60,345 bases of DNA from a bacterium (lineage in GTDB: Bacteria > Blakebacterota > Blakebacteria > Blakebacterales > JAWOFN01): assembly GCA_046497505.1 (NCBI GenBank), contig JAWOFN010000010.1:1-60345 (forward strand), read 5' to 3'. The notes under the pieces are model-generated. The model saw only the letters and a program-made list of their open reading frames with translations, searched no databases and was not told the DNA's origin. Below are positions 40,249 through 50,688 of the stretch, piece after piece. The position numbers were made by a program, and so were the translations under genes. Numbering within the stretch: the stretch's first letter is position 1; every line of letters begins with the position of its first letter.

Positions 40249-41524
<1,276 letters not shown>

Positions 41525-41604
41525 GCCGGTCGGCCCCTCCGCCGCGGCCCCCCCGATGTCACGGGTCACGGTCAGCCGGCTCCGATAAACTCCGCACCCT
41601 TCGC

Positions 41605-41647
41605 CGCCGTTCCTCATCAGCAGGGGCAGCGGCGTTTTTTTTTTTTT
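41605..41647 (+). terminator. Intrinsic terminator after frr
   Basis: GC-rich hairpin CGCCG...CGGCG followed by a 13-T run. Confidence 0.8.
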
Positions 41648-41729
41648 GCATCCTCCGGAGCCTTTCGCTGGCCTGCTGCCGTCAGGTGGGGTTAAATGGG
41701 ATGAATGGTGTGAGACCTGTAAATCTCAA

Positions 41730-41758
41730 TTGACACTTTTCATCTTCAGGAGTAATGT
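41730..41758 (+). promoter_or_regulatory. Sigma70 promoter of the signalling cluster
   Basis: TTGACA-17 nt-TAATGT; TGAGA-N8-TCTCA inverted repeat (41711-41728) abuts the -35. Confidence 0.6.
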
Positions 41759-41813
41759 CACCGGGCCGCTTCGAGCCCAGCTACGACCATATGGGTGCAT
41801 TGAGGGGCAAAAG

Positions 41814-42482
41814 ATGCGAAATGTAGTTGCAGAGATCGAGTCTGACATCTGCACCCTCAGCGGTGTCAGATCAGCCCATGTGGTGCTCAGCCCTGACGGC
41901 ATGGAGATTGACGAGATCCACGTCGTTGCATCACACGACAAATCGCCGAAGCATCTTGTTCGAGACGTAGAATCCATCCTGCTCAACAACCATAACCTGC
42001 GCGTCGATCATAAGAAGGTCAGTATCGCGCAACTGAAGGACGTGGAGGGTAAGGAGTCAGCCGTTGAGCCGGGTCCGAGCAGGCGGGCGGTCGAGCGGAT
42101 CCGATTCGTTTCGGCTAAGTCCAATACCTACGGTCTGAGATGGGAAGTGTCGGTCGAGCTGGAACGGGCTGGGATCCCGGCTGCAGCCACAGCCAACGGA
42201 GCAGGAAGCCGCCAGAACAAGGCTCGTCTGGTGGCGGAGGCCACAGCAGAAGCCTTGAACAACTTCCTCGACGATAACCAGGCAGTAGCCGTCGAGGAGG
42301 TCATCCAGACCGACGTAGGGAATCGTCACAAGGCCGTCGTCTGTGTACTTTCCCTGCTGACGAACCGGAATGAGAAGGTGCTGGTCGGAAGCAGCCTGCT
42401 TCAGGACGACTTACCTAAAGCGGTGGTTCAGGCTACACTCGATGCAGTGAATCGGGCGATCAAGCCCTCATCGAAAGAGTGA
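41814..42482 (+). CDS. Conserved hypothetical protein; C-terminal domain resembles the LeuA allosteric (dimerisation) fold
   Basis: GAGGGG RBS; EIHVVA...PKHLVRDVES...DHKKVSIAQ N-domain; RLVAEATAEAL...LVGSSL..DL..AVVQATLDAVNR C-domain. Confidence 0.75.
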   Translation: MRNVVAEIESDICTLSGVRSAHVVLSPDGMEIDEIHVVASHDKSPKHLVRDVESILLNNHNLRVDHKKVSIAQLKDVEGKESAVEPGPSRRAVERIRFVSAKSNTYGLRWEVSVELERAGIPAAATANGAGSRQNKARLVAEATAEALNNFLDDNQAVAVEEVIQTDVGNRHKAVVCVLSLLTNRNEKVLVGSSLLQDDLPKAVVQATLDAVNRAIKPSSKE

Positions 42483-42665
42483 GTCGGGGACCACACAAAG
42501 CCCTCGAACCGGAGGAGCGCTGCATAGGATAGGAAGACTTTGACAACGAGCTAAAGACCGACATCGACTCGGCCAAACAGCGAGCGGAGCGGATACCCCA
42601 GAGGAGCGGTGACTCTGTCCACCAGCGGACGGGCAGAGATCCCAACTCAGAAAGGGGGGTCTCGC

Positions 42666-42725
42666 ATGTTTTTCAAGCTCATGCTAGCTTTGCTGGTTGC
42701 GCTTCAAACCAAGACCAATTGGTAA
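42666..42725 (+). CDS. 19-aa small peptide MFFKLMLALLVALQTKTNW
   Basis: Strong AGAAAGGGGGGT RBS 5 nt before ATG; basic residue, hydrophobic core and terminal Trp; directly upstream of a membrane HD-GYP gene. Confidence 0.65.
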   Translation: MFFKLMLALLVALQTKTNW

Positions 42726-42776
42726 GAGTTTGGTGTCGGTCTTTGTTTTTCCCCACGTTAGCCTGGGGCACCATCG

Positions 42777-44192
42777 ATGCCGGATGAGGCAACAGTCCAA
42801 ATTCCTTCTCAAAAACTCAAGTCAATTGGCCTTGATATATATGTAGGTCTTGTAGTACTGGCTGCTGTCGCGGGTATCTTCCTTAGTTGGAACCAAAGCT
42901 ATCTCACTCAGATAAGTATAGCAGCATTTATCGTTTGGGTTTCACTGGTAGTAATTGCAGACTTAACCCCGATTGTATTGCCTCGTGGTGAAGCCGTTTT
43001 AAGTGTCGGTGGCGCAATTGATTTCGGAATCATCCTACTTTTCCCGACATTTGTAGCAGCACTAACAGGCATTGCATCTGGTTTCATAAGTTCCGTTGTC
43101 CGACGAGTAGAATCCCGGAGAGTCATATTCAATATGGGCATGAATGCCCTAACGATAATGGCTGCTTCGGAAGTTGTTCGAGTTCTTGGCGGAAAGATTG
43201 GGGTTTTGAACCCAGCCCAGCTCGTGGACTGGCCCCTTTCAAGAATGTTTTTGAGTTATTTCTTTGCAGCTATCGTGTATTTCTTGGTTAATACTGGGTT
43301 AACGAGCATTGCCATTTCGCTCAGTACAGGCTCCGATGTCCTGAGTGTGTGGCGGACAAACTATATGTGGACAATTGTGAGTACTCTTGCGATTGCTCCT
43401 ATCGGCTTTATTCTGGCAGCAGTATATCACGTTCTTTCTGATAGTCCTGTGATTGCCATTCTCGGGTTGATGATTTTCATTCTCCCGGTTATCGTGATAA
43501 AAAATAGCTATAAATGGTTTACTAGCGTCAATGAAACGTATTTCAGTGCAATTAGAGCGCTAATCAGTGCCTTAGATGCAAGTCATCATTATACACAAGG
43601 TCACTCCCGCCGGGTGTCGACAAATGCCGTTCGAGTTGCCCGTTCAATACGATTATCGGAAGATGAAATCGAAAACATTGAGAGGGGTGCGATACTTCAC
43701 GACATCGGCAAGATTGGATTAGATAAGAGCATCCTTGATAAAGAGGGTCCATTGAACAGTCTGGAGTGGGCTCAGATGAAACAACACCCGGTACTCGGCT
43801 CCAGAATCATCAAAGATCTTGCATTCTTGCAGGATGCCAGAGAGATAATCCTACACCACCACGAACGAATGGATGGCCGGGGTTACCCAGCCGGACTGCC
43901 TGGGGATGCAATCCCGATTGGAGCAAGGATTGTAAATGTTGTCGATGCCCTCGACGCACTCACCTCTAATCGTTCCTACCGTCCAGCAATGTCTGCTGAG
44001 GAGGCCATTGAGATTCTTCGCACAAATTCAGGAAAGCAGTTTGACCCGGAAGTTGTGGATGCTGTGGACAGGCTTGCTAAACGTGGTGAGTTGATCTTCC
44101 AGAGAGCAGTTTCGTACACTGATGATGACGGAGAGATTCTCTTCACCGGCCACGAACTTCTGGATGCACTTCAATCTTCAAGAGGAAAGTAG
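42777..44192 (+). CDS. Membrane-bound HD-GYP c-di-GMP phosphodiesterase with multi-TM sensor domain
   Basis: About 7-8 hydrophobic segments, then YTQGHSRRV, LHDIGKIG, HHERMDGRGYP, DALTSNRSYR and GKQFDP. Confidence 0.93.
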   Translation: MPDEATVQIPSQKLKSIGLDIYVGLVVLAAVAGIFLSWNQSYLTQISIAAFIVWVSLVVIADLTPIVLPRGEAVLSVGGAIDFGIILLFPTFVAALTGIASGFISSVVRRVESRRVIFNMGMNALTIMAASEVVRVLGGKIGVLNPAQLVDWPLSRMFLSYFFAAIVYFLVNTGLTSIAISLSTGSDVLSVWRTNYMWTIVSTLAIAPIGFILAAVYHVLSDSPVIAILGLMIFILPVIVIKNSYKWFTSVNETYFSAIRALISALDASHHYTQGHSRRVSTNAVRVARSIRLSEDEIENIERGAILHDIGKIGLDKSILDKEGPLNSLEWAQMKQHPVLGSRIIKDLAFLQDAREIILHHHERMDGRGYPAGLPGDAIPIGARIVNVVDALDALTSNRSYRPAMSAEEAIEILRTNSGKQFDPEVVDAVDRLAKRGELIFQRAVSYTDDDGEILFTGHELLDALQSSRGK

Positions 44193-44202
44193 CGGGACCA
44201 AC

Positions 44203-45237
44203 GTGTCACAGTACGCAAAGGCAGGGGTCGACTTAGAGGCCTCTGGTTCTCTGAAGAAGCGAATCGGCGACTTAGTTGCATCAACCTACAGCAAGAATGT
44301 TGTCTCAAAAGGCGGCGAGTTTGGAGGCCTCTATCGGTTGCCAAACTCTGGTCAGACCGTGGTTGCAAGTGTTGATGGTGTCGGTACGAAGTTAAAAGTA
44401 GCGATGATGGCCGGGCGTCACGATACGGTGGGCCAAGACTTGGTGAATCATTGTGTAAATGACATAGCCGTTATGGGTGCCACTCCACTTTTCTTTCTAG
44501 ATTACTTTGCCTCCGGACGTCTTCCAGAGTCTGTCACACTCGATGTTGTTTCCGGCATAACAAAAGCCTGTCGGAATCATGACATAGCTGTTCTCGGAGG
44601 AGAGACTGCTCAAATGCCAGAATTCTATGAGGACGGAGAATACGATCTTGCCGGAGCGATCTTCGGAATTGTGAATGAAGAAGATACTCTTCCAAAATTA
44701 GACCAAATATCTTCGGGTGACGTACTGGTTGCATTTAAGTCAAATGGGCTACACACAAACGGGTACACTCTTGCCAGGGATATCCTCTTTTCTCGGGCTG
44801 ACTTAGATGTAAATGATTACTCAGAAGAATTGGGCGCCAACTGGGCAGATGAATTGCTCAGGATTCACCGTTCCTACTTCGAAATAATCCAGGCGCTTAT
44901 AAGCCAAGATTTAGTTAATGCTTTTGCGCACATTACCGGAGGAGGGATTCCGGGGAATCTTGGCCGAGTTTTACCGGAAGGACTCAAGGCCCTAGTGGAT
45001 GTTTCAAGTATCCAGACTCAACCAGTGTTTCAGGTTCTTATGGATTATGGGCAAGTAAGCTTGGAAGAGATGTTCGATGTGTTCAACATGGGTGTTGGAC
45101 TCATTGCAGTTTGCCCAGAATTGGGAGCGGGTTCAATCCTTACCCAATATGCGAACGACGCCTTTAGGATTGGGACTCTGGTCACTACATCTGAAAAAGC
45201 CAAAGAAGGGCCAGTTGTTCTGGAGGGACTCGCTTAG
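44203..45237 (+). CDS. purM: Phosphoribosylformylglycinamidine cyclo-ligase (AIR synthetase)
   Basis: Y..AGVD, DGVGTKL, GGETAQMP, SNGLHTNGY, AHITGGG and VFNMGVG. Confidence 0.96.
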   Translation: MSQYAKAGVDLEASGSLKKRIGDLVASTYSKNVVSKGGEFGGLYRLPNSGQTVVASVDGVGTKLKVAMMAGRHDTVGQDLVNHCVNDIAVMGATPLFFLDYFASGRLPESVTLDVVSGITKACRNHDIAVLGGETAQMPEFYEDGEYDLAGAIFGIVNEEDTLPKLDQISSGDVLVAFKSNGLHTNGYTLARDILFSRADLDVNDYSEELGANWADELLRIHRSYFEIIQALISQDLVNAFAHITGGGIPGNLGRVLPEGLKALVDVSSIQTQPVFQVLMDYGQVSLEEMFDVFNMGVGLIAVCPELGAGSILTQYANDAFRIGTLVTTSEKAKEGPVVLEGLA

Positions 45238-45257
45238 TTCACTATGCAAGCGTCCTA

Positions 45258-46643
45258 ATGCCCTTTGTTCAACCGCCCAGACGTAACAGCGTTCAATTCT
45301 TCACGATTGGTGTGAGCGTTGTTGCAACGCTGTTTCTTGGGGTCGTTCTAACGCAGGGCTTTGTGAACTGGCCAGGGATTGGCCCCTTCACCTTCTGGGC
45401 TCTCCTTTCAATTATTGCCAGTTTGTTGCTCGTTCGCCTTCCAGAAGGCGGGGCAACCACCAGTATGGGAGAGATTGTAGATCTTGCTGCATTGGCAACT
45501 GCAGGGTTGTTGCCGGTACTGGTTGCAAATGTTGCGGGTGTTCTCGGACGAAACGCTATTAACCGCCCGACATCTCTCCTTAGAAACATCTTTAATCTCA
45601 GCCAGTGGAATGCTGCAACAATCACTGGGTACTTCGTTCTCAAATGGCTGATTCCAGAAGGACATCTGGATTTTTCTCCCATCACTCTGGGGGCCTTTTT
45701 TGCGGCTTGGTTGGCGTTTTCCACCGTCAGCACGATTTTAGTTTCCTCAGCAATCTCTTTGGATGAGAAACGACCCATAGCCCCAATTTGGATCCACAAT
45801 TACGGTAGGGAAACGCTGGTCTCACTTTTCTCTGTTCCCCTGGCGCTAATCATGGCGCTTTTGTATTCGACCTACGGGGCACTTCCCGTGGTGCTTCTCC
45901 TACTCCCTATCCTTGTTACTAGCTTCTTGACTGGTCTCTGGGTTGACCGTGACCGAATTCGTCAACAAGCTGAGCGGGACAAAAAGCTTACTGAAATGGG
46001 CAAAGCATCCGCTGCTGTACTCCATGAGCTGTCGAAACCGATCAGTCGGATCGTGATGACGTCTGATTATGCGTTAACGGGGGGGTATCCGGAGTCCGAA
46101 GCATTGGAGAAGATATTGGGGGAGGCGAAGGAGGCAGCATCGCTGTCGGACAAGTTGTTCGAGGCCTTGAAGATGGGGCCCTCACCTTCCCCGGTTCGGA
46201 TCGAGTGCCTCCTGGAGAAGTTGCGGAAGGGGCTGGATGAGGAGACGATCCCCGTGGAACTCGAGGCGGATGCCCATGGCCTTGCTGCCGAGGGACATTG
46301 GGATGCCGACCTGGTCGTCACGGCGCTGCTCAACCTGCTGAGGAACGGTTGGGAGAGCCAGAAGAAGAGGGGGAAGGGCTTGAGTCTCGGTATCAACGTG
46401 AGCAGGGACCGTGAGCAGGGGGATGTCTGCCGTTTCACTGTCCGCGATCGGGGTCACGGTTTCTCCGCGCCGATGGGACCGGACCTCTTCGACGCACTCT
46501 ATTCCACCAAGCAGTCGGGGTCCGGGATAGGTCTCTTCATCGTGAACCAGGTGGCTCTGGCCCATGGGGGGAGACTCTCTGCCAGGAACCACCCGGATGG
46601 CGGGGCGGAATTCGCACTCGACATGCCATTGAAGACAGAATGA
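45258..46643 (+). CDS. Orphan membrane histidine kinase with multi-TM sensor domain homologous to that of the HD-GYP protein
   Basis: LHELSKP H-box, LLNLLRNG, RDRGHG, LYSTK and GSGIGL; ATGA overlap with chorismate mutase. Confidence 0.88.
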   Translation: MPFVQPPRRNSVQFFTIGVSVVATLFLGVVLTQGFVNWPGIGPFTFWALLSIIASLLLVRLPEGGATTSMGEIVDLAALATAGLLPVLVANVAGVLGRNAINRPTSLLRNIFNLSQWNAATITGYFVLKWLIPEGHLDFSPITLGAFFAAWLAFSTVSTILVSSAISLDEKRPIAPIWIHNYGRETLVSLFSVPLALIMALLYSTYGALPVVLLLLPILVTSFLTGLWVDRDRIRQQAERDKKLTEMGKASAAVLHELSKPISRIVMTSDYALTGGYPESEALEKILGEAKEAASLSDKLFEALKMGPSPSPVRIECLLEKLRKGLDEETIPVELEADAHGLAAEGHWDADLVVTALLNLLRNGWESQKKRGKGLSLGINVSRDREQGDVCRFTVRDRGHGFSAPMGPDLFDALYSTKQSGSGIGLFIVNQVALAHGGRLSARNHPDGGAEFALDMPLKTE

Positions 46644-46993
46644 CGGCAGGTTCGATGGAGCGCCTCGATCCCATACGTGAGGAGATCGACAGGATCGACG
46701 AGGAGATCCTGCACCTGCTCAACGAGCGGGCGAGGAAGGTCCTGAAGATCGTTGAGATCAAGGGGGAGCTGGGACTGCCTGTTTACTTCCCCCAGCGGGA
46801 AGATGAGATCCTCAGGCTGGTGCAGGATGCCAACGGGGGCCCGCTATCGGATACCGCAGTAAAAAGGGTGTTCGAGCGCATCATCGATGAATCCCGGAGA
46901 CTGGAGCGGACGTTGGGGGACGAGGAGGACGCAGGGGGCGGGGAGCCGGAGCCACACCAGGAACAGGAACAGGATCCGGAGCAGGAGGATTGA
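46640..46993 (+). CDS. Chorismate mutase (type II)
   Basis: IREEIDRIDEEIL.LLNERA...K...PVYFPQRE; precedes the shikimate operon. Confidence 0.9.
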   Translation: MTAGSMERLDPIREEIDRIDEEILHLLNERARKVLKIVEIKGELGLPVYFPQREDEILRLVQDANGGPLSDTAVKRVFERIIDESRRLERTLGDEEDAGGGEPEPHQEQEQDPEQED

Positions 46994-47232
46994 TGGTCGG
47001 GGAGGGATGAAGAAAGGGCGGGACAAAGCGAGGATGATCGATTAACCTGTCAAGCCTATGATGCACTGCATCTTCGCATATCGCGGTTCCCACCGATATA
47101 TCCCGCGGGTCGGGCGTCGATGGCGTCTGTCTGCATACGGCTGCTAGCCCGAAACCCGCGCTGACACGCTGAACCCTGCCGCCCGGAGCGGCGATCAAGC
47201 ACCAACACATATCGGAAGTACGAGGTCTTACC

Positions 47233-48246
47233 ATGGTCATCGTGATGTCCCCGCACGCGTCCGAAGAACAGATCCAATCTGTCATCGAGAAACTCAGCGA
47301 GCAGGACCTGGACGTCCACCGCTCCACCGGCAAGAGCCGGACCATTTTAGGGGTCATAGGGACCCGCATCGACATAGATCCCCGGAACCTGGAACTCCAA
47401 GAGGGGGTCTCGGAGGTCATCCGCGTCACCGAGCCCTACAAGCTGGCCAGCCGTACCTGGCAGCCCGAACCGACGGCCCTGGACATCAAGGGGGTGAAGA
47501 TAGGCGGCGGGCATTTCGCTGTGATGGCAGGGCCCTGCTCGATAGAGGGCGAAGATCAGATCCACGCCATTGCCGGGATCGTCTCCGAATCGGGTGCCCG
47601 TGTCCTTCGGGGTGGAGCGTTCAAGCCCCGTACCAGCCCCTATTCCTTCCAGGGCCTGGGGGAGGACGGTCTCCGGATGCTCCGGGAGGCAGCAGACTCC
47701 CACGGACTGATCACCATCACCGAGGTGATGGACGCCAGCCAGATCGAACGGGTCAGCAGGTATGCCGACATCCTCCAGGTCGGTGCCCGGAACATGCACA
47801 ACTTCGCGTTCCTGAAAGAGCTGGGGAGATCGGACCAACCGGTGTTCCTCAAGCGGGGGATGTCGGCGACGATCCGCGAGTGGCTGCAGGCAGCAGAGTA
47901 CATCCTAGCAGGAGGGAACCGGAGGGTCATGCTCTGCGAGCGGGGGATCCGGACCTTCGAAGACTACACCCGCAACACCATGGACATCAGTGCCATCCCC
48001 GTGGTGCACAAGCTGAGCCACCTGCCGATCATCGCCGATCCCAGCCATGGGACCGGTCGAAGGGACAAGGTGGCGCCCATGGCCCGGGCCGCACTGGCGG
48101 CTGGGGCGGACGGTCTGATGATCGAAGTGCACAACGAGCCGGACCAGGCTAAGTCGGACGGGGCCCAGTCCCTCTTCCCGGCCCAGTTCGAGACCCTCAT
48201 GAAGGAGATCGCCCAGATCGCGCCTCTCGTGGATCGGGAACTCTGA
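47233..48246 (+). CDS. aroF: DAHP synthase type I-beta with N-terminal regulatory domain
   Basis: AGPCSIE, RGGAFKPRTSPYSFQG, LQVGARNM, CERGIRTFE and DPSH. Confidence 0.96.
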   Translation: MVIVMSPHASEEQIQSVIEKLSEQDLDVHRSTGKSRTILGVIGTRIDIDPRNLELQEGVSEVIRVTEPYKLASRTWQPEPTALDIKGVKIGGGHFAVMAGPCSIEGEDQIHAIAGIVSESGARVLRGGAFKPRTSPYSFQGLGEDGLRMLREAADSHGLITITEVMDASQIERVSRYADILQVGARNMHNFAFLKELGRSDQPVFLKRGMSATIREWLQAAEYILAGGNRRVMLCERGIRTFEDYTRNTMDISAIPVVHKLSHLPIIADPSHGTGRRDKVAPMARAALAAGADGLMIEVHNEPDQAKSDGAQSLFPAQFETLMKEIAQIAPLVDREL

Positions 48247-48247
48247 G

Positions 48248-49357
48248 ATGCCGTTCCAGCGAATCGCCATCTGGGGACTGGGTCTGATGGGAGGATCGCT
48301 CGCCGCGGCCCTTCGGTCCCGGGATTTCGAGGGGGTTGTGGTGGGGATCTCCAGCCAGGATTCGGTGTCCCGGGCTGTGAGGGCGGATCTGATCGACGAA
48401 GGATACCCGCACGCCGAGTTCACCCGCGGGGTAGAGGGTGCGGACCTGGTGGTCCTCGCCTCGCCCATCGATTCCATCATACAGAACCTGAACGCTCTGG
48501 CGCCGGTACTCCCGCGGGGTACGGTGGTCACCGATGTGGGTTCCACGAAGAGTGCGATATGCAGCCACGCCCGAGGGACGCTGCCCGAAGGGGTCCTCTT
48601 CGTCGGGAGCCATCCGATGGCGGGATCGGAATCGAAGGGGATCGGCGCGGCCGACGCCCTGCTTTACGAGAACGCGGTGTGGGTCCTGACACCTGAGAAG
48701 GGGCAGGAGGAGTCGGAGGCCGTCGAGAGTCTGTCCGCCCTGGCCGAGCGGGTCGGGGCCAAGGTGGTCGTGACCGACCCGGTCTCCCATGACCGGATCG
48801 CCTCCCGGATCAGTCATCTCCCCCAGACCCTGGCGGTGGTCCTGATGAATAGCGCGGGCGATTGGAACGAGGAAGATGATCTCACGCTGCGTCTCGCGGC
48901 GGGAGGTTTCAGGGACCTGACCCGCATCGCGTCGAGTCCGTGGGGGATGTGGGCGGATGTCTATTCCACCAACCGCTCAGCCATCCTGGACGCGCTGGAC
49001 GCCTTCATGGGAGGATTAACGAGGATTCGGGAGGCCGTCGCGTCCGAGGGTGATGAGATGCTCGAAGAGGAGTTCCAACGAGCGAACGCGCTGAGGCTGT
49101 CGGTGCCGAGAGATACGAAGGGGTTTGTCCGACCGCTCTGCGATATCATGGTAGTGGTACGGGACGAGCCGGGGGTCTTATCGCGTATCGCCGGTTCACT
49201 CGTTCCGCACGACATCAACATCCGCGATATCGAGGTGCTCAAGGTCAGAGAGGGCGAGGGCGGGACCATGCGCCTGGCCTTCGATGGCGAGCAGACCGCG
49301 AGAGACGCGGTGCGTCACCTGAAGGAAGAAGGGTTCAGAGCTTGGGTGAGGGAGTAG
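48248..49357 (+). CDS. tyrA: Prephenate/arogenate dehydrogenase with ACT domain
   Basis: GLGLMGGS, DVGSTK, HPMAG, SHLP and GFRDLTRIA; C-terminal DEPGVL ACT domain. Confidence 0.93.
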   Translation: MPFQRIAIWGLGLMGGSLAAALRSRDFEGVVVGISSQDSVSRAVRADLIDEGYPHAEFTRGVEGADLVVLASPIDSIIQNLNALAPVLPRGTVVTDVGSTKSAICSHARGTLPEGVLFVGSHPMAGSESKGIGAADALLYENAVWVLTPEKGQEESEAVESLSALAERVGAKVVVTDPVSHDRIASRISHLPQTLAVVLMNSAGDWNEEDDLTLRLAAGGFRDLTRIASSPWGMWADVYSTNRSAILDALDAFMGGLTRIREAVASEGDEMLEEEFQRANALRLSVPRDTKGFVRPLCDIMVVVRDEPGVLSRIAGSLVPHDINIRDIEVLKVREGEGGTMRLAFDGEQTARDAVRHLKEEGFRAWVRE

Positions 49358-50688
49358 TGGAGACCGGGACGGCCCGGGTGGTCCGTCGAGCCAAGGGGAT
49401 CAAGGGGGTCGTGGAGGTGCCCGGGGACAAGTCCATCAGTCACAGGGCTGCCATCCTCGGAGCGTTGGCTGAAGGGACGACCCGTATCGAGAGACTCGCC
49501 CCCGGCAGAGATGTGGGGAAGACCCTTTCATGCCTCCATGCCCTCGGGGTGGGGATCGAGTACGGTCCCGCCCCCGTTGAGGTCACGATCGAAGGAGTGG
49601 GAGCACCCTCGGGAGGAGCCGGGTGGAAGGTCCCGGATGGTCCTCTGGACTGCGGGAACTCCGGCACTACAGCCCGGATGCTCGCCGGTGTGCTGGCCGG
49701 ACAGGGTGTCGATGCTGTCCTCGCCGGGGACGAGAGCCTGAGCACCCGTCCCATGGAGCGTATCGCCATCCCCCTGAGGAGGATGGGGGCGGAGGTGGAG
49801 CTCTCGGCAGAGGGGACGCTCCCTATGGAGGTCAGGGGGGGCGGGCTCACAGGGATCACCTACAGCAGTCCGGTAGCCAGCGCACAGGTGAAGTCGGCCG
49901 TGCTCTTCGCCGGCCTGGGGGCGTCCGGTGTGACCGAGCACATCGAGCCTGTCCGGTCCAGGGACCATACCGAACGGCTCCTCAAACAGTTCGGTGCCGA
50001 TATCGACACCCATGCCTCTGGGGGAGGCAGAGGGGAGTATCGGGTCCGTCTTGATCCGGGCAGCCCTCTCAAGGGGCAGGAGATCGCGGTCCCCGGGGAC
50101 ATCTCCAGTGCCATCTTCCTGGCCGTGGCGGCCCTGCTTGTGCCGCGGTCGGAGCTGATCATGAAGGGCGTGGGATTGAACCCGGGGCGGCGTGAGGCGC
50201 TCCGGGTCCTGGACCGCATGGGAGCGGACATCGAGATAAAGGACCGGAGGACCTCCGGGGGAGAATCCCGGGGCGATCTCCATGTGAGCTACAGCAAGCT
50301 CACCGGCACGGGCATAAGCGGCAGCAGTGTGCCCTGGCTCATCGACGAGATCCCCGCTCTGGCCGTGGCAGCGGCTTTCGCAGAAGGAGAGAGCTATGTG
50401 AAGGGCGCCGAGGAACTGCGCAACAAGGAGAGCGACAGGATCCACGCCCTGGTGCACAACTTGAGGCTGCTGGACCTGGAGGTCGGGGAGTTCCCCGACG
50501 GGTTCGTGCTCCGAGGCAAGCAGAGCCACGACGCGGCCGAGTTCGAGAGCTTCGGGGACCACCGCATCGCGATGGCCTTCCACGTGGCGGCGCTGGCGTG
50601 CCACGGTGAGAGCATCATCAGGGGATACGAGGCCGTGGAAGTGAGCTGGCCCGACTTCCCCGATGTGCTCGAGGCCCTGGCCGTCTGA
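49357..50688 (+). CDS. aroA: EPSP synthase
   Basis: PGDKSISHRA, DCGNSGT, SAQVKSA, RDHTE, KESDR and DHRIAM. Confidence 0.97.
   Translation: METGTARVVRRAKGIKGVVEVPGDKSISHRAAILGALAEGTTRIERLAPGRDVGKTLSCLHALGVGIEYGPAPVEVTIEGVGAPSGGAGWKVPDGPLDCGNSGTTARMLAGVLAGQGVDAVLAGDESLSTRPMERIAIPLRRMGAEVELSAEGTLPMEVRGGGLTGITYSSPVASAQVKSAVLFAGLGASGVTEHIEPVRSRDHTERLLKQFGADIDTHASGGGRGEYRVRLDPGSPLKGQEIAVPGDISSAIFLAVAALLVPRSELIMKGVGLNPGRREALRVLDRMGADIEIKDRRTSGGESRGDLHVSYSKLTGTGISGSSVPWLIDEIPALAVAAAFAEGESYVKGAEELRNKESDRIHALVHNLRLLDLEVGEFPDGFVLRGKQSHDAAEFESFGDHRIAMAFHVAALACHGESIIRGYEAVEVSWPDFPDVLEALAV

Follow-up and report, generated by a model that had tools for sequence, protein, structure and literature searches.

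What is the function of a 19-codon open reading frame (ORF) that sits between a gene for a hypothetical protein and a gene for a membrane-bound enzyme of cyclic di-GMP (c-di-GMP) turnover? The locus that raises this question lies in a 60,345-nt stretch of DNA from a bacterium of the Blakebacterota (GenBank assembly GCA_046497505.1, contig JAWOFN010000010.1, positions 1 to 60,345 of the forward strand), which in its full length is called the window here. On its plus strand the window carries, in this order, rpsB, tsf, pyrH, frr, the gene of a 222-aa hypothetical protein (hereafter hyp), a 294-nt spacer containing the 19-codon micro-ORF, a gene that fuses a MASE9 domain to an HD-GYP phosphodiesterase domain, purM, and a histidine kinase gene. 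An earlier note on this DNA had read hyp, the micro-ORF and the two signalling genes as a candidate small-peptide signalling system. All four are indeed present on the plus strand; purM, which lies between the two sensor genes, had gone unmentioned. The answer that we favour, with roughly even confidence and from sequence analysis, is that the micro-ORF encodes a regulated, trans-acting and probably membrane-resident peptide partner of the MASE9 domain, the translation of which would be gated by the RNA around it.

The micro-ORF (42666..42725, plus strand) is a conserved coding gene. It encodes the 19-aa peptide MFFKLMLALLVALQTKTNW, and GAAAGGGGGG is found 6 nt upstream of its ATG, with the Shine-Dalgarno (SD) sequence GGGGGG at 42654..42659. 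The collection examined includes 10 species genomes of the window's phylum, and a 29-nt pattern from the spacer occurs as one copy in each of 5 of them, always between hyp and the HD-GYP gene; the 5 genomes without the pattern include four at 63-85% completeness. Scanning metagenomes with the same pattern gave 25 stretches, 9 with the element and 16 that are unrelated chance matches. Among the distinct complete copies from the phylum, the micro-ORF is intact in 11/11 (contig ends truncate two more), with 19 codons in ten and 21 in one, the latter due to an in-frame insertion of 6 nt. The variable columns are distributed 10/5/16 over the three codon positions, the changes being mostly in the third, and the pN/pS of 0.27 indicates purifying selection. 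The best conserved part of the phylum's peptides is the tail TKT[NTSH]W, and their uncharged stretch spans 9-11 residues. The small ORF singled out in the earlier note is thus real, far beyond chance. Its description as strongly backed by a ribosome-binding site stood in part: the SD is present upstream of the ATG, but it is predicted to be base-paired and not free (see below).

The gene order recurs across distant lineages. A survey for MASE9 (PF20972 at E<=1e-5) found the domain in 21 of 301 sampled genomes, with Thermotoga maritima and Thermus thermophilus among the control genomes matched, and led to 18 loci outside the window's phylum. At 12 of these 18 loci, an SD-preceded ORF of 13-32 aa, with Trp as the last or second-last residue, lies 5' of the MASE9 gene, and at a 13th (L064) the contig start falls inside the end of a comparable ORF. 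A search for small Trp-ended ORFs beside HD-GYP relatives was the test put forward in the earlier note, and the link to MASE9 holds across lineages. A hyp homologue lies directly 5' of the MASE9 gene at 8 of the 18 outside loci (profile hmmsearch, E 6e-18 to 6e-45). All 8 have an SD-preceded ORF of 16-26 codons between hyp and MASE9, with Trp last in 6 and second-last in 2, and in 6 of the 8 purM follows 3' of the HD-GYP gene, as it does in the window. Four outside loci have a comparable ORF without an adjacent hyp. One of these, L054, possesses the AGCG motif and its own closing helix P1 (both described below); the genomes of the other three (L057, L069 and L071) have no hyp gene, and the loci no AGCG motif. 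In the phylum of genome G087, represented by 12 species genomes, hyp was found in 12/12, and at 12/12 loci examined the 22-26-aa ORF has GGRNDW as its invariant last residues. Finally, genome G073 carries a readable micro-ORF copy 5' of a weak MASE9-like gene, as well as a second leader copy after hyp, which faces a convergent gene and the ORF region of which could not be read. Chance rarely yields such an ORF: when each intergenic region was dinucleotide-shuffled, 2-33 of 1000 shuffles per locus (0.2-3.3%) produced an ORF of 14-30 codons that follows an SD and has Trp in its last two codons, whereas the real sequence has one at 9/9 loci tested. The criteria were set after seeing the data, and some of the lineages are kin.

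Several of these loci show peculiarities. At L071 (genome G097), oriented positions 887-1120, 5' of the MASE9 HD-GYP gene, contain a 96-nt repeat in three tandem copies; each copy has a strong SD, and the 13-codon ORF, MNKWGRTKCERWA, is the same in all three. At L069, from the related genome G257, we found a 5-codon ORF, MNKWG, along with a 32-codon ORF that starts with MNKWG and ends with GKWG; whether this 32-aa relative is equivalent is uncertain. At L068, in G087, the micro-ORF and the MASE9 gene are separated by a canonical terminator with a GC-rich hairpin and a T7 run, so hyp and the micro-ORF may form a transcription unit of their own, or the terminator may be an attenuator.

For a comparison of the products we used 25 peptides from 25 genomes, 13-32 aa in length. 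Trp is the last residue in 20 and the second-last in 5, and 23 of the 25 have a basic residue 0-3 positions before it ([KR]x0-3Wx0-1-end). The body is hydrophobic or amphipathic in 24, with a mean hydropathy of +1.48, and is followed by a polar tail (-1.54). Many versions contain 16-21 uncharged residues, the length of a transmembrane helix. The tails are specific to lineages and, inside each of them, better conserved than the rest of the peptide: these include [KR]AGW in G230 and G067, as well as GGRNDW in the G087 phylum. One or two Trp residues are found in 22 of the peptides and more in three, with adjacent Trp seen only in G043 and G063. The stop codons TAA, TAG and TGA are all in use. 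Scans of eight of the peptides, 20-32 aa in length, against Pfam and NCBIfam gave nothing meaningful (best E 0.08-0.55).

In the window, the micro-ORF is enclosed by a conserved structured RNA of about 195 nt (42552..42745, plus strand), identified by alignment and RNAalifold. In the window's phylum RNAalifold predicts four elements: a closing helix, P1; a small hairpin, P2; a helix between an anti-SD and the SD; and a hairpin, P4. P1 is a 15-bp helix that pairs 42552-42567 with 42730-42745. Its 3' strand starts 5 nt past the micro-ORF stop and is followed by a T-rich run. The anti-SD, ACCCC at 42595-42599, is predicted to pair with the SD. P4 (42607..42643) has AGCGGA in its loop and shows a compensatory change between UA and CG. 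Repeats of the AGCG-N-AGCG type (42583..42629) flank the anti-SD, namely AGCGGAGCG at 42583-42591, GAGCGG at 42604-42609 and AGCGGA at 42624-42629. The minimum free energy of the window's RNA is -82.7 kcal/mol (z -4.18), and 0 of 200 shuffles were equally stable. At the predicted pairs 96.2% of the alignment cells are paired, against 39-56% when the partners are slid, and 72 of the 120 leader columns before the ATG are invariant across the 11 phylum copies. Rfam cmscan at E<=1 found no match in window positions 41000-47500 and none at 11 distant loci. This SD-masking structure and the conserved partnership with hyp had both been missed in the earlier note.

The RNA architecture is conserved beyond the phylum. 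With P1 scored across lineages as an ungapped helix, a contiguous P1 of 10-17 bp, of lineage-specific sequence, was found in 8 of 10 lineages, its 3' strand lying 5-51 nt past the stop; in 7 of these 8 lineages, the score was reached by at most 3 of 300 shuffles. L068 and L055 have an interrupted P1 only. Duplex-folding on wide windows did not separate 5'/3' pairs of the same lineage from pairs taken across lineages. A separate RNAalifold analysis of the G087 phylum (10 sequences) gave P1, a helix of anti-SD and SD (CUCCC:GGGAG), and a hairpin resembling P4, which has AGCGG in its loop and three compensatory pairs. In the G087 phylum and in several other lineages, the final codons of hyp contain the P1 5' strand, and ribosomes finishing hyp would therefore be expected to melt P1 there. 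Distant hyp homologues (L073, L074, L056, L063, L059, L068 and L055) share a C-terminal tail, E-Y/F-x-[IVL]-G/R-P, which is missing from the proteins of the window's phylum. The codons of this tail overlap the P1 5' strand in L074, L063, L059 and L068, and protein and RNA constraints may be entangled at this overlap.

The presence of hyp goes together with that of the repeats. Repeats of the AGCGNAGCG type were found 45-117 nt 5' of the micro-ORF at 11/11 loci of hyp-containing genomes and at 0/3 loci of hyp-free genomes, the background of the motif being 12 regex matches in 43 kb. The protein itself (41814..42482, plus strand) has no match in Pfam or NCBIfam, and its earlier description as an unknown two-domain protein agrees with an AlphaFold2 model built from 129 sequences (pLDDT 92.3), which replaced a model from 26 close sequences (pLDDT 66). 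In this model, the N-terminal domain is ferredoxin-like (alpha-beta-beta-alpha-beta) and the C-terminal domain is a (beta-beta-beta-alpha)x2 unit like the allosteric domain of LeuA and citramalate synthase. The modelled C-domain aligns with the regulatory domain of LiCMS (3f6g_B; VIA Z 9.6, rmsd 3.0, 109 aligned residues) and with M. tuberculosis LeuA (3fig_A; VIA Z 8.1); Foldseek also gave a match to such allosteric domains, with E 1.8e-6. The corresponding Pfam family, PF08502, reaches 14-21.5 bits in relatives of hyp, below its gathering score of 24.9, and does not match the window's protein. The fold of the C-domain is thus shared with LeuA and citramalate synthase, but hyp stands alone without a catalytic domain, has an added ferredoxin-like N-domain and stays below the Pfam threshold. 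The N-domain of the model shows Z of about 8 to the C-terminal domains of CDF transporters and to ring-building motifs; since the ferredoxin-like fold is common, we regard this likeness as uninformative. Each beta-beta-beta-alpha half also resembles the dsRBD-like units of uS5 (Z 6.4-6.9), which gives a weak hint of RNA binding.

The hyp family is large. A profile search of 1.84 billion representatives returned 3957 members at E<=1e-3, 2622 at E<=1e-10 and 741 at E<=1e-30; all names seen were 'hypothetical protein', except for one 'Daple' among the longer forms, and the source labels include Atribacterota and Coriobacteriia. Searches of the family profile against PDB sequences gave 0 matches. 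Among longer fused forms one irrelevant protein of 498 aa was found, lengths of about 390-496 aa lying outside both searches, and 12 longer family members showed no extra domain in Pfam. In the ESM Atlas, a cluster of 443-aa proteins is structurally like residues 44-215 of hyp, and 19% of its members have an Hfq domain; this is a possible fusion and, if so, would hint at an RNA-related role of hyp. Of 26 family members, 6 gave weak matches to Cas_NE0113 (residues 31-106, E 8e-6 at best), and the window's protein gave none.

The product of the gene that follows the micro-ORF (42777..44192, plus strand) combines MASE9 (about residues 1-250) with an HD-GYP c-di-GMP phosphodiesterase domain (residues 262-426; HD_5, PF13487, E 1.2e-37). 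MASE9 was matched at residues 92-242 with 27.0 bits, against a gathering score of 24.3, and the translation contains the HD and HHExxDGxGYP motifs. The histidine kinase (45258..46643, plus strand; HATPase_c E 2e-16) has a polytopic N-terminal domain that is paralogous to the MASE9 domain (BLASTP, 29% identity over 197 aa, E 1e-8), in agreement with the related membrane domains proposed before; against PF20972, it scores 16.3 bits, the gathering score being 24.3. As a core member of the system the kinase did not hold: it is present in the cluster only in the window's phylum, and elsewhere purM follows the HD-GYP gene. The preprint by Galperin and Chou that defines MASE9 argues, in the part accessible to us, that the ligand binds within the membrane, and names no ligand there (10.1101/2021.11.05.467447). 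The window's HD-GYP protein shares the founding MASE9-HD-GYP architecture of that preprint, the accessible part of which mentions no partner, micro-ORF, RNA or upstream protein, unlike the cluster described here; its figures or supplements (Figure S5) might show gene neighbourhoods.

How would these parts work together? Selection at the protein level, the hydrophobic body, the lineage-specific tail ending in Trp, the masked SD and the linkage to MASE9 HD-GYP genes lead us to favour a peptide that acts in trans. It would most likely remain membrane-bound and serve the HD-GYP phosphodiesterase as a partner of its MASE9 domain, or as a ligand of that domain within the membrane; in the window's phylum the peptide would probably act on the paralogous domain of the kinase as well. 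The level of the peptide would then set c-di-GMP turnover. Its synthesis would be gated by its own mRNA, in which a long-range helix is predicted to pair the 5' and 3' flanks of leader and ORF and an anti-SD flanked by AGCGNAGCG repeats to mask the ribosome-binding site. Co-occurrence and the fold hints make hyp, with its LeuA-type allosteric-like domain, the best candidate reader of these repeats, which might open or close the switch. We infer the membrane location, the binding to MASE9 and the binding of RNA by hyp from these signatures. The three tandem mini-ORF copies 5' of MASE9 in one genome would fit the dosage of a product.

A number of observations weigh against a gated, membrane-resident partner. 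Covariation is thin, with changes on both sides in 4 of 48 pairs within the phylum, where the sequences are very similar. The ORF and C-terminal criteria were chosen with the data in view. Five of the 18 MASE9 loci (L060, L062, L065, L066 and L072) have no such ORF; they include one from genome G164, with a close 473-aa HD-GYP orthologue and with hyp elsewhere in the genome. Several versions lack the length or the apolar character of a classical transmembrane helix, namely those of the window's phylum, with their uncharged stretch of 9-11 residues, the acidic amphipathic 16-mers of two lineages, with three acidic residues, and the basic 13-mer of one lineage, present in three tandem copies. 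The role of hyp extends beyond the micro-ORF RNA, since in five genomes (G161, G123, G237, G211 and G169; loci L087, L088, L089, L091 and L094) it lies directly 5' of purM with neither micro-ORF nor MASE9 between them; hyp was found in 24 of the 301 genomes. The hyp-purM pair may be the older pairing, and its recurrence hints at a link to purine metabolism. Parts of the window's stretch are present in eight metatranscriptome runs from two salt-lake studies. In four of the runs, low-depth contigs extend over parts of hyp, of the RNA and of the HD-GYP gene. They link hyp with the RNA at 42365-42743 and 42340-42583, and the RNA with the start of the HD-GYP gene at 42578-42797, but such contigs indicate presence in RNA libraries only, DNA carry-over being possible. 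One of these contigs, with 7 differences, matches 42365-42743 and then runs on for another 220 nt that do not resemble the window; this break, where the 3' strand of P1 ends, could reflect a strain with another downstream sequence or an assembly chimera.

Every such micro-ORF lies on the same strand as the MASE9 gene and 40-110 nt 5' of it, an arrangement that also fits the main rival, a cis-acting leader ORF. Here, a ribosome pausing at [KR]xxW-stop, by arrest or by sensing of the Trp codon, would block pairing of the P1 3' strand and so control read-through into, or translation of, the MASE9 HD-GYP gene, and the released peptide would have no function. We consider this fairly unlikely. It would account for the conservation being highest in the last 4-6 residues before the stop, with GGRNDW invariant in 12/12, and for the position of the P1 3' strand, which in 6 of 10 lineages lies 5-15 nt past the stop, within reach of a terminating ribosome; in 3 of the 10 it lies 33-51 nt past the stop, which counts against a leader. 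T-rich runs follow P1 in the window's phylum and in G073, a canonical terminator separates the ORF from MASE9 in G087, and aromatic amino-acid genes lie downstream in the window, all of which would suit a leader. But known leader-peptide sensors need constitutive translation, and the SD of the micro-ORF is sequestered in the conserved fold. We found neither the run of regulatory codons nor the accessible SD of attenuators of the trpL/tnaC type; the SD is paired in both consensus folds. Most of the peptides have a single Trp codon, all three stop codons are used, and the hydrophobic or amphipathic body kept in 24/25 would not be needed by an arrest peptide of 16-28 aa residing in the tunnel. 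The second leader copy in G073 (the one with the unreadable ORF) faces a convergent gene, which also counts against a leader. Because the SD is sequestered by default, we prefer a regulated product acting in trans to a sensing leader ORF.

The earlier note took the peptide or its processed C-terminus as the ligand of the two receptors. Spelled out as a model in which the hydrophobic N-terminal part serves as an export leader and a C-terminal piece is released as a diffusible, quorum-sensing-like signal for the MASE9 domains, this appears decidedly improbable. The design of the peptides would suit it, with a variable hydrophobic N-terminal part, a small or Gly-rich linker and a conserved, lineage-specific C-terminal tetra- to hexapeptide, as would the tandem triplication in one genome and the two paralogous sensors in one operon in the window's phylum. 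In the Agr and ComQXPA systems, a tiny precursor gene adjoins that of a multi-pass membrane receptor kinase, and a tiny gene beside a multi-pass membrane receptor is common to these systems and to the locus in the window. The present locus differs from them in having no gene for a processing or modifying enzyme, a much shorter precursor, and HD-GYP as the main receptor output, the kinase being confined to the window's phylum. The absence of an AgrB/ComQ-like gene, already remarked in the earlier note, extends to peptidase and transporter genes: none was found in the conserved cluster in Pfam and NCBIfam scans of all neighbours, in the window or among the same neighbours in other phyla. No gene for a protease, a transporter or a modification enzyme is conserved, then; the conserved neighbours are hyp and purM. 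Nothing in the cluster indicates export, and as no export or processing gene travels with it, action within the membrane is likelier than an exported signal. Moreover, a cleaved tail would have only 4-6 residues, and the carriers include uncultured lineages with small genomes, in which the locus is single-copy among housekeeping genes.

A system akin to type I toxin-antitoxins is very unlikely. In such a system the micro-ORF would encode a small, hydrophobic toxin of the membrane, and fold-back of the 5' and 3' ends of its mRNA, together with sequestration of the SD, would hold the message inactive. The mRNAs of the hok and AapA types have a long-range 5'-3' helix and a masked SD, and both features, together with a very small hydrophobic ORF, of 19 aa in the window, are shared by the present locus. 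The locus differs in being single-copy and syntenic with signalling and housekeeping neighbours: one copy was found in 5 of the 10 phylum genomes, at the same housekeeping locus and not as a patchy, mobile, multi-copy element, and distant lineages keep hyp, MASE9 and purM in the same order. Some versions of the peptide are acidic 16-mers or the basic 13-mer, and no antitoxin RNA, antisense promoter or terminator was evident, although no systematic search for these was made. That the RNA alone is functional, as a riboswitch or a small RNA with an incidental ORF, is scarcely credible: the leader is conserved beyond the needs of pairing (72/120 columns), the AGCGNAGCG motifs are repeated and the fold is stable (z -4.18), but the third-position bias, the pN/pS of 0.27 and the in-frame indel speak for coding, and the SD and the ORF with its C-terminal Trp are kept where the nucleotide sequences can no longer be aligned. 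Neither the toxin nor the RNA-only reading sits well with the synteny and the coding signal.

A close parallel to a membrane-resident partner of MASE9 is offered by small membrane proteins of the MgrB-PhoQ kind, which modulate sensor proteins. Shared with these is a hydrophobic peptide of fewer than 50 aa that acts, as proposed, on a sensor in the membrane; in the present locus its gene is immediately 5' of that of the sensor. There is no sequence relation, and the proposed target is a c-di-GMP phosphodiesterase driven by a polytopic MASE9 domain. The micro-peptide also differs in its conserved C-terminal Trp and in being placed inside a conserved, putative RNA switch, next to a protein with a LeuA-allosteric-like domain.

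Around these genes, the neighbourhood in the window is as follows. A possible promoter of the cluster, TTGACA and TAATGT with a 17-nt spacer, was read from the sequence at 41730..41758 (plus strand). The cluster had been called promoter-led; TTGACA (41730-41735) is perfect, but TAATGT is weak, and a consensus promoter scan of 41300-47100 gave 0 sites, this candidate included. Between frr and the hyp cluster, a GC-rich inverted repeat with a T13 run after it (41635-41647) probably acts as a terminator; it was not called by a simple terminator scan, which gave 6 candidates against 5.6 in shuffles, i.e., no excess. The purM gene, encoding AIR synthetase, lies at 44122..45237 (plus strand; TIGR00878, E 1e-97) and is kept as a neighbour in other phyla too. 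Chorismate mutase, DAHP synthase, tyrA (prephenate dehydrogenase) and aroA (EPSP synthase) follow the kinase gene on the plus strand (46640-50688), so that an aromatic amino-acid operon lies just 3' of the cluster with the Trp-ended micro-ORF. In the three longest metagenome loci, an ORF resembling EPSP synthase is found 3' of the kinase. The gene order from pyrH to the kinase is unchanged in relatives from the phylum as far as their contigs extend, and a Pfam and NCBIfam scan of the neighbouring proteins identified only hyp (without a family), HD-GYP, purM, the histidine kinase and chorismate mutase.

We did not find the module described in Rfam 15, Pfam, NCBIfam or the full-text literature on MASE9, HD-GYP and small proteins, subscription journals and supplements being outside the scope of that search; the earlier view that this is not a described system is in line with this. 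The locus exposes gaps in annotation at three levels: a family of micro-proteins with an ORF of fewer than 30 codons in the window and with scanned members of 20-32 aa outside any Pfam or NCBIfam family, a structured RNA motif absent from Rfam, and a protein family that is large, with 2622 clusters at E<=1e-10, but has no Pfam or NCBIfam model and is tied to this RNA and to purM. Among the lineages that carry the module are some with related proteins source-labelled Gemmatimonadota, Atribacterota and Coriobacteriia, and the genome with the strongest MASE9 match has it as well; the module is therefore more than an oddity of a single uncultured group.

Membrane sensor domains of the MASE type are common in c-di-GMP enzymes and kinases, and a genetically linked, conserved peptide of 16-32 aa is a concrete candidate ligand for MASE9, one that can be synthesised for tests with purified enzymes. 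The parts can also be joined into a four-part device, which is speculative and rather unlikely to hold as a whole: hyp would sense a metabolite, bind the AGCGNAGCG repeats much as repeat-reading attenuation proteins do, and unlock synthesis of the membrane micro-peptide, the Trp-ended tail of which would switch the MASE9 HD-GYP protein and, in the window's phylum, the kinase. The metabolite might be an amino acid or, because purM is a recurrent neighbour of hyp, an intermediate of the purine pathway. If true, such a device would couple the metabolic state to c-di-GMP, with a translated peptide as the second signal, and the peptide would be the first ligand for an intramembrane sensor of the MASE type.

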